A DNA stretch of 11,054 bases from a bacterium (GCA_020349685.1 CP070698.1:1762808-1773861); one strand, 5' to 3'; shown: positions 1 through 11,054, numbered from the stretch's first letter. Notes: generated by a model not told the origin, from the sequence alone. Numbers and translations: made by a program.

Positions 1-1598
1 AGCTTGAGCTCCTCCTTGCCGAAGGCGCCGGGTTTCCTTGAGACAACCGCAATGGCTGCCTTCAGCGGTTTATCACTATCTTTCATGAAACACGGTATGG
101 CGGCAAAGGAGACGACATCCGACAATTTTTCTCCCTTGCGGAAGAAAGGCGACCTTTTGACCGGCCTGCTGCTTATAACGATCTCGGCCCCTTGGGCGTC
201 CCCCAGTCCCTGGATGGACTCAAGCTCGCTGAATCTCCTGATGAGAAGGCCCATCTGGCTGGATTCCTCCCTGAGGATCTTCTCGCTCCCCAGCTGTTCG
301 AGAAGGTTCCCCTTGGAGGCCGCAACCGTGAGACCCTCATCGTAGAGCATGACAGCTGCACCGTCACACTTGGGGACCGCGTCCACCACCGCATCGAGCG
401 CCTTGGCCGCAATGAACTCCGGTTCCAGAGACTGCGTCAATCCCCGGGCATATCTGGATACGGCATCCCTTGACGACAGATCCGTTGTCAGTCTCTGCAG
501 GTTGCCGGCCGTTTCCATGGCCCTGAGGATCAGCAGGCCGAATTCGTCCAACAGCCTTGCAGTGGAATTGTCCAGGGACATCGAGTTGACCTTCTCGCTG
601 TCGAAATAAAGAACGCAGCGGATCTTGTCCGCGGAGGTGCCGTCCTCCGCGTCCTTTCCCCACTTCGGGTCTTTCACGATCTTGACGAGAAACGATCCGA
701 CCTGGACATCCTCGGGGTAGAAACTGAGGGATTTCCTGGCTGAAGTGGCGTCGGAAACACAGAGGATTCCTTCCCGCTCCCTCGTGATGTGGATAAAGCC
801 CTTGTCCCCTGGAACAAGCCCCTCGATGATCGGGACGCCGCTTTTTACGGCGGCGGCCCGCATCCGGAAAAACCCTATACTGTCATCGTCCGGGATAAGA
901 AGGATGCCCGTTCGCGCATTGAAGATACGGCAGCCCCACCTGAGGAGCGGCTGGAGAAAGTCGTCCTCGTTCAATGCAATGGCCACGGCCGAATCCTCAC
1001 TCCGTATCCGATCAGTGGATTCCGGAAAGCTTTCTTCCCTGATCCGCTTCATCATCTCCCTGGCATCGCTGTTGATCCGGCTGAGCTGGGACCGCAGGTG
1101 CGATATATGCTTTCCGTCCCTCCACATCCTGACACCCAGGACCGCGCTGTAGAAAAGCAGCGCACCTGTCCAGTACAGGAGCTCCGGGTCCCCCTCGAAG
1201 AGGAACCTGCCGCCTGCGGCAAGGGAAAGGATCAGGGCCGGGACCCAGAAGAAATGGATGCGTCGTGCGAATACGCTCAAAGGGTAGGCGATAAAGAGCA
1301 GCAGGGGGATGAGGGTGAGGGAGGCATAAAAGGCCTGGACCACGGCACCGGCAAGGACGCACAAGGTGAAATGGATCGAGGTGTCCGTTCCCAGCTGCCT
1401 GACACCCTCCCCGCGCTTGAGCATCATCGTGACGGCCAGGGCCAGAGAGCCGCATCCCAGGGATGCCTGCGCAAGAAAGTAGAAAAGCTCAGGTCTGCGG
1501 TCCGAGGCCGCCAGGGGGAGGACAATGGAAGCGGCGAGCAGGCCCACGGTGACCAGGAACAGACGCTTGATCCCCGGGGCGTAGGCGTCGGCACTCAT
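1..1598 (-). CDS. Membrane sensor protein, about 6 TM helices + two GAF-like domains; 3'-truncated by the window edge; probable DmxA-like diguanylate cyclase (output domain not visible)
   Basis: Manual translation from ATG at 1598 (ATGA overlap with ftsB stop 1595-1597) gives 532 codons with no stop to the window edge: MSADAYAPGIKRLFLVTVGLLAASIVLPLAA...six hydrophobic segments in the first ~160 aa...FLQPLLRWGCRIFNARTGILLIP...VLYFDSEKVNSM (GAF1-like)...LTQSLEPEFIAAKALDAV...SFAAIPCF...AAIAVVSRKPGAFGKEELK (GAF2-like). Absent from the ORF track, presumably because it has no stop in the window. Confidence 0.8.
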   Translation of the reverse strand, partial: MSADAYAPGIKRLFLVTVGLLAASIVLPLAASDRRPELFYFLAQASLGCGSLALAVTMMLKRGEGVRQLGTDTSIHFTLCVLAGAVVQAFYASLTLIPLLLFIAYPLSVFARRIHFFWVPALILSLAAGGRFLFEGDPELLYWTGALLFYSAVLGVRMWRDGKHISHLRSQLSRINSDAREMMKRIREESFPESTDRIRSEDSAVAIALNEDDFLQPLLRWGCRIFNARTGILLIPDDDSIGFFRMRAAAVKSGVPIIEGLVPGDKGFIHITREREGILCVSDATSARKSLSFYPEDVQVGSFLVKIVKDPKWGKDAEDGTSADKIRCVLYFDSEKVNSMSLDNSTARLLDEFGLLILRAMETAGNLQRLTTDLSSRDAVSRYARGLTQSLEPEFIAAKALDAVVDAVPKCDGAAVMLYDEGLTVAASKGNLLEQLGSEKILREESSQMGLLIRRFSELESIQGLGDAQGAEIVISSRPVKRSPFFRKGEKLSDVVSFAAIPCFMKDSDKPLKAAIAVVSRKPGAFGKEELK

Positions 1599-1998: not shown

Positions 1999-4500
1999 TC
2001 ACGCGACCTGCATCTTCTCTATCTTGCGGGCCCATGTCTGCAACCTGCTTGTGACAAGACCCTCTTTGGGGCTCTCCCCGTAAATGTGAAAACAGGCATG
2101 GTTGGAGCTTGGGTAGATCAGGACCCAGCCATCATCATCCTCGAGACGAACTCCTTCTATGGCTTTGGTCTCTTCCCCCAGCTCCTCTATCAGGGTGCGC
2201 ATCACCTGGCCTTTGGCCTCCCAGGCGCATGGGACGATGCTGTGCTGCAGATAGGCCTCTGGAAGGGAATCCACGAGGTCTCCCAGGCGGGCACCGGAAG
2301 CGACCATCATTTCCATGGTCTTTAAGAGGCAGAACATGGCATCAAAGGATGGGTGAAAATCGGGGAAGGCAACACCACCTTCCAGGTTCCCTGCCAGGAA
2401 GGCCGACCCGGAGTATGCTGCATCTAAGATCGCGCTGGTGCTGATCGGTGTCCTTATGACACTGGCATCGTGCTCCAGCGCCAGCTTCTCCAGGTTTCCG
2501 CTCGCGTTGGCAGGGACGGCGACCGTGCATCCCGGGTTCATCCTGAAGGCGAGCAGTGCAAGGATCTGGAGCATCTTTCCACCGTCTATCCACCGTCCCC
2601 TTTCATCGATGAGTGTAAGGGTTTCACCGTTGGTGCTCAGGATCGCGCCGAGGTTCGCCTCGAGCTTCTGAACGTATTCGGAGACCTGCCCGACAGCTCT
2701 GTCGAACTGCCTGGTGGTGCGGATCACTCTCTCCTCGTCGATATGAGAGTTCAGGGAAACCACCTCCGCGCCCGTCCGGCCCAGAAGGGCCGGCAGGATC
2801 TTGATGGTCGTGCCGAAAGCATAATCCACGATAAGCCTCATCCTGGATCTGGAAACGGCCGTCAGGTCAAGGTTTTTCAGGAAGGCTTTCTCGTAGGATT
2901 CGGAACCGTACTCCGGGGCGAGAATGGATCCTGAGTTCTCAATGGAAGCTCTCCTGAAATCCATTCTGAAAAACAGCCTGTCGATCTCTCCCCGCTGGGA
3001 GGCACTCAGCTCCCTTCCATCCTCGCCGAAGAGCCTTATTTCAAGGATCTCGGGATCAGTTGGGGTCCTCCTGACGTGCATCCCTCCCACATCTCCCTCC
3101 GCCCTGATGAGGTGCCTGGCAACAGGGATGGGGATAACGCTCGCCTCGTGCACGCCCACACCAACAGAAAGAATGCCGGAAGAAATGGCCTCACTGATCA
3201 TCCGGGACGATCTGTGGATCCCTCTGGAGAGGGACACCGTGGAATGCTCGGGAAACAGGGCGCCGAAGGAAGCTCCCAGCCTGGCCGCGAACTCGGGCGT
3301 TATCTCCCTGTTGGCAAGTCCGCTTATAATGCCCCCTGTAAAAAGGGTGCCCCGCCAGCGTGATCCCCAGATAAAATCGTTGGACAGGACCGCCCCGTCT
3401 TCCACAACCTTCTCGGGCCAGATCCTCACGCCTGCCTGAATGATACTTCCCCGGCCGATGATGCAGTCCTCGCTAATGACCGACCCTTCCTCTATGTTGG
3501 CCCGGATCCTGACCTGGGTCCTGGAACCGATGACGCTTCCGGCAACAAAACAGCCACGCCCGATCAGGGCGTCATTCCAGACGACCGAAGACCTCATACG
3601 AACGTTGGGCTCCACAGTGACGCCGTGCCCCAGGAAGGAATCCCGGATCCGGCACCCGTCACTCACCTTGACCCCGTCACCGAGAACGACGGTACCGCTA
3701 AACCAGGCTTCCTCGGAAACCTGGGCACCCTTGCCCAGGTACAGAACGGCCTCGTCGAGCACCTTCATGTCACCGGGGATGTCCAGCGATATGGTGCCTG
3801 CCGATATCTCGCGGTGCAGCTGGAGATATTCCACCGCATTTCCCACGTCCTTCCAGTAACCCTGGGCGACGTAAGCGCCAAGAGGCTGACCATCATCCAG
3901 GAGCCGGGGAAAGATATCCCTCGAAAAATCGCTGCTCACACCCTCCGGGATCCGGTCGAGGATCTCAGGTTCCATGATGTATATTCCCGTATTGATGGTA
4001 TCGCTGAAAACTTCCCCCCAGGTCGGTTTCTCCAGAAAGCGCGTGACCTGGTCGTCCTCATCGGTGATCACCACACCAAAGGGAAGAGGGTTGTGAACCC
4101 TCGTGAGGACCATCGTGGCCATTTCCTCTCGCTCTCTATGGAACTCCCAGGCATGGGTCAGGTCAAAATCGGTGATGACGTCACCGCTGATGATGAGGAA
4201 AGGCCCATCGATGACCTCCGACACGCCACGAACGGCGCCGGCTGTGCCAAGGCCGCCGGGAGGATCCTGGTGATAGGTGATCTGCGCTCCGAAATCCCTG
4301 CCATCCCCGAAATGTTCCTCGATCGTCTCCGGAAAAAAGTAGGTCAACATCAGGATCCGCCTGAACCCGTGCCTCACCAGAAGCCTGACGATATGTTCGA
4401 GCATGGGGCGGCCGGCAACGGGCATCATCGGCTTGGGCCGTTTGATGGTCAGCGGTCTCAGCCTGGTTCCGTATCCACCTGCCATGACGACGGCTTTCAA
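1999..4500 (-). CDS. Mannose-1-phosphate guanylyltransferase-like NDP-sugar pyrophosphorylase fused to a left-handed beta-helix and a degenerate phosphohexomutase (PMM/PGM-like) domain, 833 aa
   Basis: N-terminal KAVVMAGGYGTRLRPLT..PKPM nucleotidyltransferase motif, FLEKP, YWKDVG, hexapeptide repeats, then LFTGGIISGLANREITPEFA (PMM domain I-like). Start moved to TTG at 4500, preceded by a GGAGGAG Shine-Dalgarno; the track's start at 4575 is probably too long. Confidence 0.88.
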   Translation of the reverse strand: MKAVVMAGGYGTRLRPLTIKRPKPMMPVAGRPMLEHIVRLLVRHGFRRILMLTYFFPETIEEHFGDGRDFGAQITYHQDPPGGLGTAGAVRGVSEVIDGPFLIISGDVITDFDLTHAWEFHREREEMATMVLTRVHNPLPFGVVITDEDDQVTRFLEKPTWGEVFSDTINTGIYIMEPEILDRIPEGVSSDFSRDIFPRLLDDGQPLGAYVAQGYWKDVGNAVEYLQLHREISAGTISLDIPGDMKVLDEAVLYLGKGAQVSEEAWFSGTVVLGDGVKVSDGCRIRDSFLGHGVTVEPNVRMRSSVVWNDALIGRGCFVAGSVIGSRTQVRIRANIEEGSVISEDCIIGRGSIIQAGVRIWPEKVVEDGAVLSNDFIWGSRWRGTLFTGGIISGLANREITPEFAARLGASFGALFPEHSTVSLSRGIHRSSRMISEAISSGILSVGVGVHEASVIPIPVARHLIRAEGDVGGMHVRRTPTDPEILEIRLFGEDGRELSASQRGEIDRLFFRMDFRRASIENSGSILAPEYGSESYEKAFLKNLDLTAVSRSRMRLIVDYAFGTTIKILPALLGRTGAEVVSLNSHIDEERVIRTTRQFDRAVGQVSEYVQKLEANLGAILSTNGETLTLIDERGRWIDGGKMLQILALLAFRMNPGCTVAVPANASGNLEKLALEHDASVIRTPISTSAILDAAYSGSAFLAGNLEGGVAFPDFHPSFDAMFCLLKTMEMMVASGARLGDLVDSLPEAYLQHSIVPCAWEAKGQVMRTLIEELGEETKAIEGVRLEDDDGWVLIYPSSNHACFHIYGESPKEGLVTSRLQTWARKIEKMQVA

Positions 4501-4596
4501 ACCTGCTCCTCCCTCTGGACAGACTCCCGCCAGGACCGCAGGATCCGGCAGGCACCAGAAAAGGGTAAAGTGCAACTCAACACTTTAAATTTACAC

Positions 4597-4626: not shown

Positions 4627-4755
4627 GGAAGGGAAATAAGCGTCTGGTGTCTCGTGACCAGGTTCAAAGGCCCAGGGTCCGGGACCCCGACTCGATCCGC
4701 CATTTGCAGTTTTACCTTCCACCCCTCTTTCCAGAGGTCATCACGCCGTTTCCGT

Positions 4756-4784
4756 TTGTATTTTCAATATGAAATGATTACATT
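4756..4784 (+). promoter_or_regulatory. Putative sigma70 promoter of msrA with overlapping AT-rich palindromes
   Basis: TTGTAT (4756-4761), 17 bp, TACATT (4779-4784); SD AGAGGAGG at 4802-4809 before ATG 4816. Confidence 0.5.
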
Positions 4785-4815
4785 TAAAAAACATCGGCAT
4801 TAGAGGAGGTTTTTC

Positions 4816-5673
4816 ATGATTCTGAACACGCTTGCGTACTCTTTACTATCTATGGTCATTTTAACTCTTACTTCGATAATAGTCCTGCCCGTTTCGGCCA
4901 CGGCCCTGCAGGTCGCGTCCGGCGTGCCTGCGGCAGGGCCTTCAGACTCCGCAGGGGGGGCGGCCTGTGATCTGCCCCCTGACCTGAAGGTTGATGACAG
5001 CGGTGAGGACCGACGGGGGACCGGATCACCTGTAATGGATACGCGCGCTCCTGAAAAATACAGTATGGCTACCTTTGCCATGGGCTGATTCTGGGGTCCG
5101 GACTCCCTGTACGGGAGTCTTGACGGTGTGATCAGAACACGTGTGGGCTATGCTGGTGGAACCTTTCAGAACCCCACTTACCGAAGGATCGGCGACCACA
5201 TGGAGACGATCCAGATCGACTACGATCCTGAACGTGTCAGCTACGATAAACTTCTGGAGGTATTTTTCTCCGGTCATGATCCCACCTGGCCCTCGCCCGT
5301 CAGACAGTACGCTTCGGCTATATTCTTTCACGACGAGGAGCAGGAAAAGCTCGCCTTGGAGGCCCTCGATAAAGCCGGTAAGAATACGGGTAAAAAGGTC
5401 TCAACGCAGCTGCTGCCCTACGCCGGCTTTACCCGCGCAGAGGACTACCATCAGAAATATTATCTGAGGAGCGTCCCCGGTGTCGCGGCCCTTTACGACG
5501 GCCAGTTCCGGGACCAGGACGCCTTCACCGACTCCACCGCCGTAGCGCGTGTGAACGGATATATCGGCGGCAACGGCACGGTGGAGCAGCTGGAGAAGGA
5601 GAAAGAGGAACTGGGGATCACCGACGAGGCCATCGAAGCGCTGAAATGGATATTGAGGAAAGCGGGGAAGTGA
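4816..5673 (+). CDS. msrA: Selenocysteine-containing peptide-methionine (S)-S-oxide reductase MsrA (Sec91 encoded by TGA 5086-5088), 285 aa, with N-terminal hydrophobic signal/anchor
   Basis: ORFs 4816..5088 and 5128..5673 are in the same frame. Reading through the TGA gives ATFAMG-U-FWGPDSLYGSLDGVIRTRVGYAGG, placing TGA exactly at the catalytic Cys of the MsrA GCFWG motif. Downstream MsrA motifs PTY, GDHMET, HDPT, QYASAIF and AEDYHQKYY are intact. Strong SD upstream of 4816. Confidence 0.93.
5096..5124 (+). promoter_or_regulatory. Bacterial SECIS element for msrA UGA recoding
   Basis: Perfect 7-bp stem GACTCCC (5101-5107)/GGGAGTC (5113-5119) with loop UGUAC (GU at loop positions 2-3), extendable by G-U and GTC/GAC pairs to 5096-5124. 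There are 19 nt between the UGA and the loop, which fits the bacterial SECIS model. Confidence 0.85.
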
Positions 5674-5696
5674 AAGCGGTATCTGGAATCTAGTAT

Positions 5697-5763
5697 CTAG
5701 CAGGCTGCTGAAAAACCCCGACGCTGAAAAAGTCCACGAGGGACTTTTTCAGGATCCTGCTAG
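5697..5763. mobile_element. 59-bp MITE-like / IS-end remnant with terminal inverted repeats and CTAG flanks
   Basis: CTAG (5697-5700) | CAGGCTGCTGAAAAA (5701-5715) ... TTTTTCAGGATCCTG (5745-5759) | CTAG (5760-5763). The inverted repeats match 13/15. No transposase in the window. Confidence 0.6.
5724..5752. terminator. Perfect 12-bp hairpin, likely bidirectional terminator between convergent msrA and rhodanese genes
   Basis: CTGAAAAAGTCC-ACGAG-GGACTTTTTCAG, with a T5 tract on each strand; the GC core is short. Confidence 0.5.
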
Positions 5764-5780
5764 AGTCTAGACTCCAGACG

Positions 5781-6116
5781 CTAGACTCTGGATCGGGTCT
5801 CCAGCGGAAGTCCCCTTAAAACCCAGTCCCTGTAGCTGTCGTTGTAATCATGCACAGGACCGAAACCCATCCTGTCCAGCTTGCCTGCCACGAGGCCGCT
5901 GGCGGGGCATTTCCAGTCGTTGCTGTAAACGACGATCCTGACACCCAAGGGAAGCAGTGCCCCGGCCCGCTCCTCCACGTCCATGTTGAGGAGCGAAACG
6001 GCGCCAGGCAGATGGTCGACGGCGTAGTCCTCCTCGGCCCGCGCGTCCACAACGACCATCTCCTCTCCGGAATCCATCCACGTCTTCAAAGTATCAGCGT
6101 CGATCTGCTCGACCAT
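5781..6116 (-). CDS. Single-domain rhodanese-like protein
   Basis: 111 aa: VVVDARAEEDYAVDHLPGAVSL (the DvR...Y..gHIPGA motif), IVVYSNDWKCPAS, and the C-terminal LDRMGF..V.DY..S..DW..GLPLE signature. SD GGAGG upstream. Confidence 0.88.
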   Translation of the reverse strand: MVEQIDADTLKTWMDSGEEMVVVDARAEEDYAVDHLPGAVSLLNMDVEERAGALLPLGVRIVVYSNDWKCPASGLVAGKLDRMGFGPVHDYNDSYRDWVLRGLPLETRSRV

Positions 6117-6524: not shown

Positions 6525-8255
6525 TTGCTCGGAAATCTCAAGATAGCTTATTTTACCATGGAGATCGGCCTCCGGACCGGGATTCCGACCTACAGCGGTG
6601 GTCTCGGCGTGCTCGCCGGGGACACCATAAAGTCCGCCGCCGATCTCGGGCTGCCTGTCGTGGCGGTCACACTCTTGTCCCGCAAGGGATACTTTACCCA
6701 GGAGCTGACAAGCGACGGGACCCAGATCGAGCACCCCGTCCAGTGGAACCCCTCGGACCTCCTCGAGCCTCTTCCCCACCAGGTCTCCGTCCAGATCCAG
6801 GGCCGCAAGGTAAAGGTGGGTGTCTGGCGGTACGAGGTCCTCAGTCAGACCGGCGGCAGCGTTCCCGTATACTTTCTCGACACCGACATCGAAGGGAACA
6901 CGGACCAGGATCGCGAGATCACGCACCACCTCTACGGAGGGGACAGCACCTACCGCCTGAAGCAGGAGATCGTCCTGGGCATCGGCGGTATCCGCATGCT
7001 CCAGGAACTTGAGATTGACATCTTCAAATACCATCTCAACGAAGGGCACTCGGCCCTCCTGGCCCTGGAGCTTCTCAATTGGCTGCGCCGGGACATTACG
7101 ACGGTCTGGGACGAGAAACTGGTGTGGGATGTGGAAGCTGTCCAGGAGCGGTGCATCTTCACGACCCACACCCCGGTAGAGGCCGGTCACGACAAATTTC
7201 CCTATGACCTCGTCACCAGCATCCTGGGTGAGATCGTCCCCCTTGAGATCATGAAGGAGCTCGGGGGCACGGAACACCTAAACATGACCCTTCTGGCTCT
7301 TAACCTGAGCAATTACGTCAACGGTGTGGCCAAGAGGCACGGGGAGGTCTCCCGGGAGATGTTCCACGGGTATCACATCCACAGCATCACCAACGGCGTC
7401 CACTCCCACACGTGGACATGTGAGGGCTTCCGGGAGCTCTACGACAGCTATCTGCCAGGCTGGGCCAACGAACCGGAGCTGTTCGTCCGGATCGACACGG
7501 TCCCCGACGAGAAGATCTGGGAAGCCCACGTGGCTTCCAAGAACAAGATGATCAGCAGAATCCGCGAAAAGACCGGTGTGAGCCTTTCCCCGGAGGTGCT
7601 GACCATAGGTTTCGCCCGCAGGGCAACCAGCTACAAACGGGCCGACCTGCTCTTTTCCGACCTTCAGCGGTTGAAAAGGATCGGGGACGGGCGCCTTCAG
7701 ATCGTTTACGCCGGGAAGGCCCATCCCAAGGACGAACCCGGCAAGGATCTCATCAGGCGCATCTTTACGCACGCGAGGGAACTCGCCGACCATGTCACCG
7801 TCGTCTATCTGCCCGACTACAACATGGAAACGGCGTGCTGCATGGTGGCCGGGGTGGATCTGTGGCTCAACACCCCCTTGAGGCCCATGGAGGCGTCCGG
7901 CACGAGCGGCATGAAAGCCGCGCACAACGGCGTTCCGAACTTCAGTGTTCTTGACGGCTGGTGGGTCGAGGGACACATCGAGGGTGTGACCGGATGGTCC
8001 ATCGGTCCTGAGCCCAGTGGAAAGGACAGGGACGGGCGCAACGGTAAAGTGGATGAAAAGGATCTTTACGACAAGCTCGAGAAGGTCATCATGCCCCTTT
8101 ATTACGGCAACCGGCCGGGTTGGATCCGTGTCATGAAGAACGCCATAGGCAAGAACGCCTATTATTTCAACTCACACCGCATGATGCGCCGGTACGTGAC
8201 CTTCGCCTACATCTCGACCCACTCCACCGGTGAAGACGCGGCTGGAAAGTACTGA
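6525..8255 (+). CDS. glgP: Alpha-glucan (glycogen/maltodextrin) phosphorylase, GT35, short 576-aa form
   Basis: IAYFTMEIGL..YSGGLGVLAGD, HLNEGH, FTTHTP, ITNGVH, GFARRATSYKR, AGKAHP and the PLP-lysine motif EASGTSGMK. TTG start with SD. Confidence 0.95.
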   Translation: MLGNLKIAYFTMEIGLRTGIPTYSGGLGVLAGDTIKSAADLGLPVVAVTLLSRKGYFTQELTSDGTQIEHPVQWNPSDLLEPLPHQVSVQIQGRKVKVGVWRYEVLSQTGGSVPVYFLDTDIEGNTDQDREITHHLYGGDSTYRLKQEIVLGIGGIRMLQELEIDIFKYHLNEGHSALLALELLNWLRRDITTVWDEKLVWDVEAVQERCIFTTHTPVEAGHDKFPYDLVTSILGEIVPLEIMKELGGTEHLNMTLLALNLSNYVNGVAKRHGEVSREMFHGYHIHSITNGVHSHTWTCEGFRELYDSYLPGWANEPELFVRIDTVPDEKIWEAHVASKNKMISRIREKTGVSLSPEVLTIGFARRATSYKRADLLFSDLQRLKRIGDGRLQIVYAGKAHPKDEPGKDLIRRIFTHARELADHVTVVYLPDYNMETACCMVAGVDLWLNTPLRPMEASGTSGMKAAHNGVPNFSVLDGWWVEGHIEGVTGWSIGPEPSGKDRDGRNGKVDEKDLYDKLEKVIMPLYYGNRPGWIRVMKNAIGKNAYYFNSHRMMRRYVTFAYISTHSTGEDAAGKY

Positions 8256-8362: not shown

Positions 8363-9937
8363 CTATTTCGCGTAAACGCTGTAGTCGATATCGGGGAAGA
8401 TGTTGTCCGCCTCCTCCATCGCCCTGAGTTTATCCTCGTCCCAGCCGTCGTCCAGAATAGCGTCGAGCTGGTTGAAGCGGTCCACGTGCAGATTGAAGCG
8501 CTTCTGAGCATACTCAACGCTGGTCCCCATGGTCATGATAAAGGGCCAGTCGCTGGATTGGGCAAGGAGAAGTTCGCGGGCCATCTGGTTGAGGATCCTC
8601 CTGCGGAGAGGATCGGGTGCCGGATACTGGCGCGCCCTGCCCGACATCCTGATGGCCGCGTTGTGCAGGTACCTCCAGATCCAGTCGTTGGATCCGTTAA
8701 GCCACACCTCGTAATATCCCTTGTCGCCCCAGCTTGAGGAGCACGGTGTAGCCACCTGGTGGGTAGGGTTCTCCTCCAGATACCGGGCAAGGGTCACCGG
8801 ACGGATGATGGAATCGGCCATGCGCCGGAAAACGTGTTCCAAAAAATCGGGGCCCTCGAACCACCAGTGTCCGAAAAGTTCCGCATCGTAGGGCGAAAGG
8901 ACGATGGGCGGTTTGTCCATGAGCCCTGCCAGGTGCTCTACCTGACGCTCCCGGTTGAAGACAAAATTGGCCGCGTGCTCCCGGACCCGCTCCGCTGCCC
9001 TTTCAGGTTCATAGAGCTCCTTGTGCTCCGTATCTCCGGTTATCCGGTGATACTTGATACCTGTGAAGGTGCGGATGCCGTCGGGGCTCACATAAGGCCT
9101 GATATACTCCATGTCCAGATCGAACCCGGCATCCCTGTAAAAATCCCTGTAGGCCTGGTCTCCCGGGTATCCTTCCTTGGAGCTCCACACCTGCTTGGAT
9201 GACTCGTGATCTCTTGCAAAGGCCGCGACACCTGCAGGCGTGTAAATGGGCGCGAACACACCGAAAAGACTTCGCGGCCTCGAATAGAGCAGACCGTGGC
9301 TGTCCATGATGAAAAACCTCAGGTTGTATGCAGCCAGAACCTCATCGAGCCCCTGGTAGTAGGCGCATTCAGGGAGCATGATCCCCGCTGGATCCCGCCC
9401 GAGAAGGCGCCGATGGGTGTTCACGGCCACCTCAATCTGCGCTTTGACGGAAGGGGGGTGATAGGCGAGCAACGGCAGAAAACCGTGGGTGGCACCGCAT
9501 GTAACGATCTCCACGTGACCACTGTCAGCCAGACTCCTGAATCCCGCCAGCACGTCCTTACCCAGGCTGTCGACGAAAAAGCGCCGCTTGATCGTGAAGC
9601 GGTCCATGTAAAACCTGGCCAGCCTGTTAAGCTCCGGCTGGTCACGGGTGCGGAGGATCTCCTTTTCGGCGAGTTCGATGGTGCGGGCCATGTATCCCGT
9701 GAACCTTTCCATCAGGAGCCTGTCAGCGAGCATGGATGCCAGAGTGGGCGTCAGACTCATGGTGAAATGAAAGGGAACGCCTTCATCGCGAAGGATGGAG
9801 CACCTCCTCAAAAGGGGAAGATAGCACTCGGCAAGAGCCTCGAAAAACCAGTGCTCCTCGAGAAAATAATCGTATTCGGGATGCCTGACGTAGGGCAGGT
9901 GAGCGTGCAGGAAAAGACCCCAGTACCCGGACTTCAT
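8363..9937 (-). CDS. GH57 1,4-alpha-glucan branching enzyme (DUF1957 C-terminal domain)
   Basis: LHAHLPYVRHPE, EEHWFFEA, TCGATHGFLP, LPECAY (nucleophile Glu), PYDAELFGHWWFEG (acid/base Asp), ELLLAQSSDWPF and DNIFP: the GH57 branching-enzyme subfamily signatures. Confidence 0.93.
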   Translation of the reverse strand: MKSGYWGLFLHAHLPYVRHPEYDYFLEEHWFFEALAECYLPLLRRCSILRDEGVPFHFTMSLTPTLASMLADRLLMERFTGYMARTIELAEKEILRTRDQPELNRLARFYMDRFTIKRRFFVDSLGKDVLAGFRSLADSGHVEIVTCGATHGFLPLLAYHPPSVKAQIEVAVNTHRRLLGRDPAGIMLPECAYYQGLDEVLAAYNLRFFIMDSHGLLYSRPRSLFGVFAPIYTPAGVAAFARDHESSKQVWSSKEGYPGDQAYRDFYRDAGFDLDMEYIRPYVSPDGIRTFTGIKYHRITGDTEHKELYEPERAAERVREHAANFVFNRERQVEHLAGLMDKPPIVLSPYDAELFGHWWFEGPDFLEHVFRRMADSIIRPVTLARYLEENPTHQVATPCSSSWGDKGYYEVWLNGSNDWIWRYLHNAAIRMSGRARQYPAPDPLRRRILNQMARELLLAQSSDWPFIMTMGTSVEYAQKRFNLHVDRFNQLDAILDDGWDEDKLRAMEEADNIFPDIDYSVYAK

Positions 9938-10611
9938 GGCAGATCCTTTCCCCGCCCAAGCGGCCAGGAGGAAACCGGCACCCCCGGTCCCGGAGGGCCG
10001 TAGACGCCCTCCCTTTCAAGGGGTTGACGGTCGCCGCCAGACAATCGGAAGATCTCCTCAAACTCCCTTCGACGCGTCATCCAGAGGGTATCGAGCTCCT
10101 CGGAAGGGGCGTCGTCGGGTAACCTGATCCGGTTGGATCTGGCGACGGTGGCAAACCCTTCGGCGCCGGGAACAATCAGCTCCGATTCGATCTCCATTCC
10201 GGACCGGGGAAGGTGAATGTAATAGGTCCCCGACCGGCCCCGGACACTTTCGGACAGGATCTCGTCGCCGTCCTTAACGGACAGGACTCGCAGGAAGATG
10301 CTTCCGGGTGGTTCCTCGTCCAGTTCCCAATAGGCGAAAGCGGTCCTGGGCTTCTGCGGAAGGACGCACAATCTGTTCTCTCCGAGGAAACGGGGAAGCG
10401 TCGGCGTCCCGGCCCCGACCTCTGTCTTAAAGGCCTTTTCCGCAGGGATGGCCGCGCTGGACGGTACGGGAACCCCGGGTTGACCGGCTTTTGAAAGATC
10501 GGCCAGTGCCCGGGCCAGCTGCACCTTGGTCATCCGGCTGCGGCCCTTCACGCCCGCTTCTCTCGCCAGGGCGGCAAGTTCCTCCTTTTTTTTCTTCATG
10601 TAACGTTCCAT
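9934..10611 (-). CDS. DUF4912-like protein with N-terminal Rho-N-like helical motif, 225 aa
   Basis: Probable start ATG 10611 (GAGGG SD, just after the glgA stop). EELAALAREAGVKGRSRMTKVQL (Rho-N-like), then LPRFLGENRLCVLPQKPRTAFAYWEL...YYIHL...VARSN.I.LP.DAPS (DUF4912-like). Stop overlaps the GH57 ATG (ATGA 9934-9937). Confidence 0.78.
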   Translation of the reverse strand: MERYMKKKKEELAALAREAGVKGRSRMTKVQLARALADLSKAGQPGVPVPSSAAIPAEKAFKTEVGAGTPTLPRFLGENRLCVLPQKPRTAFAYWELDEEPPGSIFLRVLSVKDGDEILSESVRGRSGTYYIHLPRSGMEIESELIVPGAEGFATVARSNRIRLPDDAPSEELDTLWMTRRREFEEIFRLSGGDRQPLEREGVYGPPGPGVPVSSWPLGRGKDLP

Positions 10612-10616
10612 CGGTA

Positions 10617-11054
10617 TCAATCCCTCTCTTTTTCTGTCAGTTCCCTGTACAACCCGGCGTATTGTCTGGCGGACCGGCGCCAGGAATTGTCCTGTTTCAT
10701 GATCCTGGGTACGATGGATGCCAGGCGGCCATCGTGGTAGATCTCTCCTGCCCTGTGCAGGGCACATAGGATGTCCCCCTCCAGAACCTCCCCAAATACG
10801 ATTCCGTTGCCCTTTTCTCCTTCCGCGTCGAGATCCGCGACCGTATCTGCCAGACCGCCTGTGGCCCGCACCACAGGAACAGCACCGTACCGCATGGCGA
10901 TCATCTGGCCCAGGCCGCAGGGCTCAAAACGGGAGGGCATGAAAAAAAAATCGGACCCGGCATAGATCCTCCGGGCCAGCTTGTCGTCAAACCCAATATT
11001 TACCGACACGCGACCCCTGAGCGGCGCAGCGGCTACTCTCAGGGAATCCTCCAG
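10617..11054 (-). CDS. glgA: Glycogen synthase GlgA (GT5), C-terminal part; 5' end outside the window
   Basis: Frame is open from the window edge: LEDSLRVAA...GFDDKLARRIYAGSDFFFMPSRFEPCGLGQMIAMRYGAVPVVRATGGLADTV...NSW..SA..Y..LY. Confidence 0.93.
   Translation of the reverse strand: MEDSLRVAAAPLRGRVSVNIGFDDKLARRIYAGSDFFFMPSRFEPCGLGQMIAMRYGAVPVVRATGGLADTVADLDAEGEKGNGIVFGEVLEGDILCALHRAGEIYHDGRLASIVPRIMKQDNSWRRSARQYAGLYRELTEKERD

Follow-up and report, generated by a model that had tools for sequence, protein, structure and literature searches.

The stretch of DNA analyzed here (hereafter the window; GCA_020349685.1 CP070698.1:1762808-1773861, 11,054 nucleotides) is one whole contig of a bacterial metagenome-assembled genome (MAG; G000), which amounts to 2.03 Mb in about 340 contigs linked by stretches of 100 N and has a completeness of 81.9% and a G+C content of 57%. 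At positions 4816-5673 on its plus strand lies a gene, msrA, that would encode a methionine-S-sulfoxide reductase A that contains selenocysteine. Under translation table 11 this region is divided into two open reading frames (ORFs), one of 90 amino acids with an ATG start (4816-5088) that terminates at TGA 5086-5088, and one of 181 amino acids with a GTG start (5128-5673) in the same frame. When the TGA is translated as selenocysteine (Sec, U), they become a single coding sequence of 285 amino acids plus stop, with one in-frame UGA, that reads ...ATFAMG-U-FWGPD... with U as residue 91; this assignment is based on the translation, Pfam matches, and the length of orthologues. The initial annotation of the window had proposed that the two ORFs join across this TGA to restore a G-U-FWG motif, that the downstream ORF alone lacks the active site, and that standard annotation would misread the gene. 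The translation bears out the first two statements, the 181-amino-acid ORF starting only at residue 105.

Translation of msrA would start at ATG 4816, which is preceded by a Shine-Dalgarno box read directly from the sequence (AGGAGG, 4804-4809, plus strand) with a spacer of 6 nt; in the majority of the nine orthologues described below, a GGAGG-like box likewise precedes the corresponding upstream start. The true stop codon (5671-5673, plus strand) is also TGA, and the C-termini of the orthologues end at the same place. A scan for sigma-70 promoters on the plus strand upstream of 4816 revealed no promoter-like site. Contigs from one RNA-library run (X18) cover positions 4813-5138; this library may contain DNA, so we do not claim transcription.

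Two domains were recognized in the predicted protein. The catalytic PMSR domain (PF01625, E 1.6e-41; residues 85-218, positions 5068-5469, plus strand) includes G90-U91-F-W-G94 and Glu130, and is followed by the C-terminal helical domain of selenoprotein MsrA (PF20939, residues 240-280 by Pfam; 5533-5655, plus strand), which is also indicated by the structural alignment below. The NCBIfam model for msrA (TIGR00401) matches with 120 bits at a cut-off of 108. The closest solved structures are chains of the Clostridium (Alkaliphilus) oremlandii OhILAs enzyme (CoMsrA; 4u66, 7c13, and 4lwj-4lwm; E about 1e-49), to which the 197 residues 79-275 align without gaps on chain residues 4-200 of 209, with Sec91 on residue 16 and Glu130 on Glu55. 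Neither the catalytic nor the helical domain contains a Cys, the sole Cys of the protein (Cys51) being located in an N-terminal extension.

According to the available part of PMC4479559, where 4LWM is named as a structure of this enzyme, CoMsrA has 209 residues, with Sec16 and no Cys at all ('1-Cys type'), and is composed of a catalytic domain (1-144) and a helical domain (145-209) that is not found in other MsrAs. The same text describes it as a cytosolic enzyme that is 20-fold more active than its own Cys form and is reduced by glutaredoxin and not by thioredoxin; Glu55 is reported to be essential, and Gly51 and His53 are also named. The Methods of that paper give Escherichia coli as the host in which native selenoprotein CoMsrA was produced. 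The enzyme from the window shares with CoMsrA (PDB 4LWJ-4LWM, 4U66, 7C13) the Sec residue in G-U-FWG, the Cys-free catalytic domain, the conserved Glu, and the PF20939 domain, and judged by its sequence it is of the C. oremlandii '1-Cys' type. This agrees with the initial annotation, which had pointed to the Sec-MsrA of Alkaliphilus/Clostridium oremlandii. In contrast to the cytosolic, glutaredoxin-recycled, and entirely Cys-free CoMsrA, it has about 75 additional N-terminal residues with a hydrophobic signal or anchor and the conserved Cys51, and its host is a diderm, uncultured sediment bacterium.

The selenoprotein MsrA family has been known since 2009. In the accessible portion of a 2026 review, MsrA with the motif GUFWG/H is listed among the experimentally supported prokaryotic selenoproteins (PMC13188914), and a 2007 report, likewise available in part, included an MsrA in its count of selenoproteins from the Olavius delta-1 symbiont (PMC1976440); one of the homologues collected here (L083) comes from a genome labelled as this symbiont. 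With the family as well as its motif and structure already established, the gene in the window adds a member to a known family and is not a new concept.

Conservation of the UGA and of the downstream hairpin

We compared the window with contigs assembled from other sequencing runs. None of the aligned contigs, which represent four runs, has a different letter at 5086-5088, and the codon is spanned by contigs of three DNA runs, each belonging to a different study (X1 records 1-3, X4 record 23, X12 record 10). Polymorphisms near the TGA, at positions 5097, 5100, and 5108, are reported in those contigs, and therefore the site itself was covered. The possibility raised at the outset that TGC or TGT might appear in other reads thus finds no counterpart in the contigs of these three studies.

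A protein search of 40 related genomes gave matches in 27. Orthologues were identified in eight of the 15 genomes from the same family; they are 42-61% identical to the protein from the window, match it over the full length, and have exactly one in-frame TGA each, whereas the matches beyond the family contain no stop. One of these genomes (G002) has an additional partial second copy. In all nine sequences (the window and eight relatives) the TGA lies within G-U-FWG and is flanked on both sides by invariant in-frame residues, including T86, F87, G90, F92, W93, and G94.

To the family orthologues we added a wider set of homologues, obtained by scanning one genome per GTDB species and retaining the top 80 out of at least 564 confirmed loci. 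One of the 80 loci is without the motif; among the remaining 79, the Sec column is occupied by TGA in 59 and by TGC or TGT in 20, a ratio that reflects the ranking by which the sample was drawn and should not be taken as an unbiased frequency. Homologues with Cys at the Sec column, which the initial annotation had proposed to look for, are present. The MAGs that contain Sec forms are labelled as Anaerolineales, Dehalococcoidia, Nitrospirota, Thermodesulfobacteriota/Desulfobacterota, Planctomycetota, Spirochaetaceae, and others. All six homologues from Thermoplasmatota archaea (L088, L099, L101, L105, L118, L123) are Cys forms, each located beside an msrB gene.

Immediately downstream of the UGA, a hairpin resembling a selenocysteine insertion sequence (SECIS) was delineated at 5096-5124 (plus strand) on the basis of its fold, codon constraint, covariation, and a comparison of Sec and Cys forms. 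Its core stem consists of seven base pairs, GACUCCC (5101-5107) with GGGAGUC (5113-5119), that close the loop UGUAC (5108-5112), whose second and third positions are GU; the first base of the stem follows the A of the UGA after 12 intervening nt. The fold agrees with the hairpin as originally described, and extends it by a G5100-U5120 wobble pair and a lower stem of three base pairs (5096-5098 with 5122-5124). The significance of this hairpin is derived from its comparison with other sequences and not from the fold of the single sequence.

The coding sequence over the hairpin is unusually constrained. Within the 12 codons after Sec, four of the five invariant residues with degenerate codons are encoded identically throughout the nine orthologues (by TTC, GAC, TCC, and GGG). 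Elsewhere in the gene this holds for two of 38 such residues, both of them Gln encoded by CAG.

As a control for the hairpin we used Cys forms belonging to the same subfamily, whose peptide is nearly identical; these replaced the Cys paralogues of the GCFWCME type, which were considered initially and are less suitable given that their peptide differs. The core of five base pairs is intact in 48 of the 59 Sec forms versus two of the 20 Cys forms, and at least six of the seven pairs are formed in 42 and three, respectively. The loop has the form xGU in 58 of the Sec forms and in eight of the Cys forms. Folding of the 45 nt that follow the codon gives a mean energy of -17.7 kcal/mol for Sec versus -13.9 kcal/mol for Cys (Mann-Whitney p about 0.0009, a value overstated by the kinship of the sequences). 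The hairpin, like the UGA, is conserved in relatives, and it tracks the TGA. Two of the Cys forms, both with TGC and both from Dehalococcoidia MAGs (L086, L089), retain the complete 7-bp GACUCCC/GGGAGUC stem and look like recent conversions of Sec to Cys with a fossil SECIS.

Covariation was assessed in an alignment of 65 Sec-form regions (64 distinct) that combines the window, five relatives, and the 59 loci; the rows of three further relatives (L020, L024, L027) were omitted as duplicates of L047, L048, and L115. Over the 64 distinct sequences, 86.6% of the alignment cells form a pair, compared with 22-59% when the partner strand is slid. Compensatory changes were found in eight cells at two pairs, and the covariation score of 0.100 (0.058 +/- 0.008 in shuffled alignments) was reached by none of 500 shuffles. 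In six sequences, RNAalifold additionally reported that the pair closing the loop has switched from G-C to A-U.

Bacterial SECIS elements are SelB-bound hairpins of the coding region that lie just 3' of the UGA. In the part of PMC1088965 available to us, they are typified by a small apical loop that contains a guanosine and is situated a short distance downstream of this codon. The hairpin of msrA conforms to the bacterial elements in its position 12 nt after the UGA, in its small apical loop with G (as GU), and in its restriction to TGA forms. It differs from them in that the copy in the window is without a bulged U, and in its family-specific sequence GACUCCC-NGUNN-GGGAGUC, which falls outside the curated Rfam models. 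By these features it would be a SECIS of a working type, and we propose that it is bound by SelB. The 59 Sec and 20 Cys forms, with their near-identical peptides, constitute a natural data set for defining the requirements of such an element.

Selenocysteine machinery and interpretation of the UGA

The initial annotation predicted that selA, selB, selC, and selD would be present elsewhere in the genome. Two of these genes were identified, namely that for tRNA-Sec (selC; Rfam RF01852, 74.2 bits versus a gathering score of 47, and SeC(tca) by ARAGORN) and selB (TIGR00475, 362 bits versus a cut-off of 242), the latter as an intact ORF of 658 amino acids; selA and selD were not found in this assembly. 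A second gene with an in-frame TGA encodes an FdnG-like formate dehydrogenase of 1038 amino acids (G000:C1 about 1023300-1026580, minus strand; TGA 1025989-1025991). It has a twin-arginine signal and a single TGA, in the context ...HQARIUHSATV..., followed by a hairpin of 9 bp; the place of this TGA is presumably that of the Sec residue in Escherichia coli FdnG. The gene next to the formate dehydrogenase gene is found, in the same-genus genome G001, directly upstream of selA-selB. GrdB (PF07355), included as an extra selenoprotein marker, gave no match in the genome and none in the control genomes either, and is uninformative.

The reading frame, motif, and domains of msrA, the conservation of its UGA and hairpin, and the presence of tRNA-Sec and selB were observed directly, and we consider it very probable that 4816-5673 is a genuine selenoprotein methionine-S-sulfoxide reductase A gene of a lineage that uses selenocysteine, with Sec91 as the catalytic residue. 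In the proposed mechanism, a ribosome that has started at ATG 4816 would meet, at UGA 5086-5088, the hairpin 5101-5119 acting as a bacterial SECIS. Binding of SelB and Sec-tRNA(Sec) to the hairpin would lead to insertion of selenocysteine as residue 91 within G-U-FWG, and translation would run on to the real stop at 5671-5673. The selenolate of Sec91 would then attack the sulfoxide of Met-S-O, so that Met is released and a selenenic acid is formed that needs to be reduced by a thiol reductant.

Several observations weigh against this interpretation. As a single sequence the hairpin is not exceptional (z-score -1.43, with 19 of 200 shuffles at least as stable), and an Rfam scan of 4700-5800 with E values up to 10 returned three chance-level matches and no SECIS model. 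In the alignment restricted to the family there are no double changes and 500 of 500 shuffles score equally, because the stem never varies there; in the wide set the covariation is confined to two or three pairs, and kinship inflates the shuffle counts. The PF20939 match ('Selenoprotein MsrA helical domain') is borderline, with 23.8 bits at a cut-off of 23.7. The family orthologue from G007 (L026, G007:C241) keeps both TGA and hairpin, but beyond about residue 207 the protein diverges, with the C-terminus matched in a different frame, owing to either a frameshift or a misassembly; decay or such errors do occur in the family. In addition, neither TIGR00474 nor PF03841 found a selA in the 81.9%-complete MAG, and the TIGR00476 search for selD in it matched only ThiL beside ThiE. 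Even among the relatives the set is not always complete, as G005 has selA only as a fragment of 27.5 bits and in G007 no selD match reaches the cut-off. Finally, the argument from assembly gaps, given next, is indirect.

That selA and selD were not found in the MAG would be explained by such gaps. Over-cut-off matches to selA were obtained in 12 of the 15 family relatives, and likewise to selD in 12 of 15; the selD of the relatives itself carries one TGA, as a selenoprotein gene. Both same-genus genomes (G001 and G002) have selA and selD, and six of the eight relatives with a Sec-MsrA gene have both over the cut-off. In G001, gene X is followed by selA and then by selB. The MAG has a homologue of gene X (1022022-1023223, minus strand) whose end lies 88 nt away from that of its contig, and the contig with selB ends about 190 nt upstream of selB; this latter end aligns to the selA-selB spacer of G001, about 55 nt past the selA stop. 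By synteny with G001 and G002, selA would fall between two contig ends (about 1021934 and 293667, G000), and selD between two others (about 896007 and 1282352, G000); in G001 selD sits between two blocks whose homologues in the MAG break off about 240 nt before one contig end and about 120 nt before another. The selA-selB spacer (G000:C1:293480-293667, L009; and L039) contains tandem GAAACGG-type 8-mers, and that of G001 additionally has GTGTGTGGG and CCCCGATAC repeats. Probably selA is missing from the MAG because the contig ends inside these spacer repeats.

Three other explanations of the TGA were weighed against selenocysteine insertion. The gene might be decaying or truncated, TGA 5086-5088 being a real stop that leaves a fragment of 90 amino acids or a 181-amino-acid protein without the active site. 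This is the default reading under table 11, and it is in line with the missing selA and selD and with the apparently frameshifted G007 orthologue; however, it is hard to reconcile with a TGA that is kept in eight relatives of 42-61% identity between conserved residues on either side and recurs in the 59 wider homologues from several phyla, with a hairpin tied to TGA and not to Cys codons, and with the presence of tRNA-Sec, selB, and a second TGA-containing gene, so that we regard decay as very improbable. Still less credible is a sequencing or assembly error hiding a true Cys codon (TGC or TGT), as might arise in a MAG of about 340 contigs; it is already contradicted by the three DNA runs from three studies that span the codon with no other letter while listing polymorphisms nearby, and by the family orthologues, all of which read TGA. 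As for a general reassignment of UGA to Trp or Gly (codes 4 and 25) in place of site-specific Sec, the open frame alone would be compatible with it, and we assign it a negligible probability. The same gene stops at a TGA, at the place where the orthologues end as well; the 1038-amino-acid formate dehydrogenase frame has exactly one TGA, at the catalytic position; the Sec column holds Cys in homologues and not Trp or Gly; and tRNA-Sec and selB are present, all of which already contradicts it.

With the UGA read as Sec, the annotation of this locus has to be changed. Gene callers would split or truncate msrA, and it should be annotated as one selenoprotein of 285 amino acids with a transl_except at 5086-5088. 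The same annotation problem affects dozens of homologues in MAGs.

The N-terminal segment and the location of the enzyme

The less ordinary part of the protein is its N-terminal extension of about 75 residues, on which the initial annotation made no remark. It begins with a hydrophobic segment at about residues 7-27 (4834-4896, plus strand), a predicted signal peptide or anchor by its sequence and its orthologues, which is followed by VSA/ATA motifs and an acidic linker rich in Pro, Gly, and Ser that contains the only Cys of the protein. This residue, Cys51 (codon TGT, 4966-4968, plus strand), lies in the motif A-C-x-L-P, 40 residues before Sec, and a Cys is aligned with it in eight of the nine family orthologues at about 40-47 residues before Sec. 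The hydrophobic stretch and the upstream start are present in all nine. Such a signal or anchor with a conserved Cys suggests a periplasmic selenoenzyme.

A wider survey by crude hydropathy and regular-expression scans of the open frame upstream revealed a hydrophobic segment in 53 of the 59 wider Sec forms, with a lipobox-like motif right after it in 13. A Cys about 42-47 residues before Sec, often as C-x-[LP]-P, is found in L056, L058, L077, L078, L110, and L111 as well as in the family orthologues; it occurs in Sec forms with predicted export from MAGs of Dehalococcoidales and Nitrospirae and is separate from any lipobox Cys. In the neighbourhoods of 88 related loci, 83 same-strand ORFs lie within 350 nt, and the commonest of them is MsrB (18 of 83), usually N-terminally extended. 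No thioredoxin, DsbD, or CcdA family member was detected among these 83 ORFs at E <= 1e-5. The genome of the window encodes BamA (230 bits), and therefore the organism is diderm. Its single MsrB and both its Cys-MsrA paralogues of the GCFWCME type (G000:C1:316752-317312, 317613-318400, and 599160-599770) start with a signal-like segment, and with this query the same is true for every MsrA found in the genome.

Because of the hydrophobic segments, the homologues with lipobox-like motifs, the MsrB neighbours, BamA, and the signal-like starts of the other Msr genes, we favour an enzyme that is exported or membrane-tethered and faces the periplasm, a location that we consider probable from these predicted features. 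The N-terminal signal or anchor in a diderm host would most likely make it a periplasmic enzyme or one tethered to the inner membrane. Some features speak against export. The n-region of this copy is without a positive charge, no DsbD_TM/CcdA-type membrane reductase was found in the 82%-complete genome, and an internal start at ATG 5035 (Met74) could yield a cytosolic form of 212 amino acids. This copy also has no lipobox, and in the window no gene for a redox partner is adjacent to msrA.

These points lead to the alternative of a cytosolic Sec-MsrA, in which ATG 5035 would be the main start, giving a product of 212 amino acids with Sec18, or in which the hydrophobic segment would anchor the enzyme facing the cytoplasm. 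The short product would resemble the 209-residue CoMsrA with its Sec16, an enzyme that is cytosolic and glutaredoxin-dependent in the available text of PMC4479559, and both the missing DsbD_TM homologue and the uncharged n-region would be accommodated. Yet a Met is found at the internal position in only four of the nine orthologues, as opposed to the upstream start and hydrophobic segment in all nine, and AGGAGG precedes ATG 4816 and not 5035. The lipobox-like motifs of homologues, the N-terminally extended MsrB neighbours, and the signal-like starts of the other Msr genes of the genome are not expected of a cytosolic enzyme either, and we judge such a location to be rather unlikely.

Periplasmic export of the enzyme would place it beside systems known from other bacteria. 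The periplasmic MsrAB of Haemophilus influenzae and the MsrAB of Streptococcus gordonii, as far as the accessible parts of the sources describe them, also repair Met sulfoxide outside the cytoplasm by means of an N-terminal signal; they differ in being Cys-based fusions of MsrA and MsrB with a dedicated electron supply of the thioredoxin/CcdA type, whereas here the enzyme has Sec, is a stand-alone MsrA, and has no adjacent partner gene. In other phyla, Sec-MsrA often adjoins an N-terminally extended MsrB, as noted above. A search of a limited literature collection, supplements excluded, found no paper on an exported selenoprotein MsrA.

The export or anchor variant is apparently widespread in sediment anaerobes and is common among the uncultured relatives. 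We tentatively raise the possibility, doubtful at present, of a large clade of extracytoplasmic Sec-MsrAs, signal-anchored or lipoproteins that frequently have an exported MsrB as their partner, in sediment anaerobes of Chloroflexota, Nitrospirota, Desulfobacterota, and Planctomycetota as well as in the lineage of the window. For members of such a clade the glutaredoxin route would be impossible, and in the lineage of the window Cys51 (A-C-x-L-P) might serve as the resolving residue; it is speculation that it forms a selenenylsulfide, which would be passed to some periplasmic reductant. The export and lipoprotein signals on most close homologues point to a selenium-dependent repair of oxidized methionine in the cell envelope of anaerobes; the sole biochemically studied enzyme of the family is cytosolic.

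Neighbouring genes and an inverted repeat

The genes around msrA in the window are mainly those of glycogen and sugar-nucleotide metabolism. Upstream, on the strand opposite to msrA, lies a fusion of a nucleotidyl transferase with a phosphoglucomutase/phosphomannomutase (1999-4575, 858 amino acids), and an ORF of 532 amino acids at 3-1598 (minus strand) has no Pfam match. Downstream are an alpha-glucan phosphorylase-like ORF (6525-8255), a GH57 branching enzyme (8363-9937), a DUF4912 protein (9934-10767), and a glycosyl transferase (10617-11054). The nearest downstream gene encodes a rhodanese (5781-6116, minus strand; assigned by Pfam), is convergent with msrA, and, like the fusion gene upstream, is unrelated to it.

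Between msrA and the rhodanese gene we found an imperfect inverted repeat of about 110 nt (5675-5783) with a minimum free energy of -54.6 kcal/mol (z-score -8.6, none of 200 shuffles being as good). The consensus terminator scan made no call at this place. A 41-nt core of the repeat has one further copy in the genome (G000:C1:1422722-1422762, 95%), and the contig depth at 5699-5772 in run X4 is 8-15 times that of the flanks. Possible identities of the element at 5675-5783 are a two-way terminator and a small repeated element.

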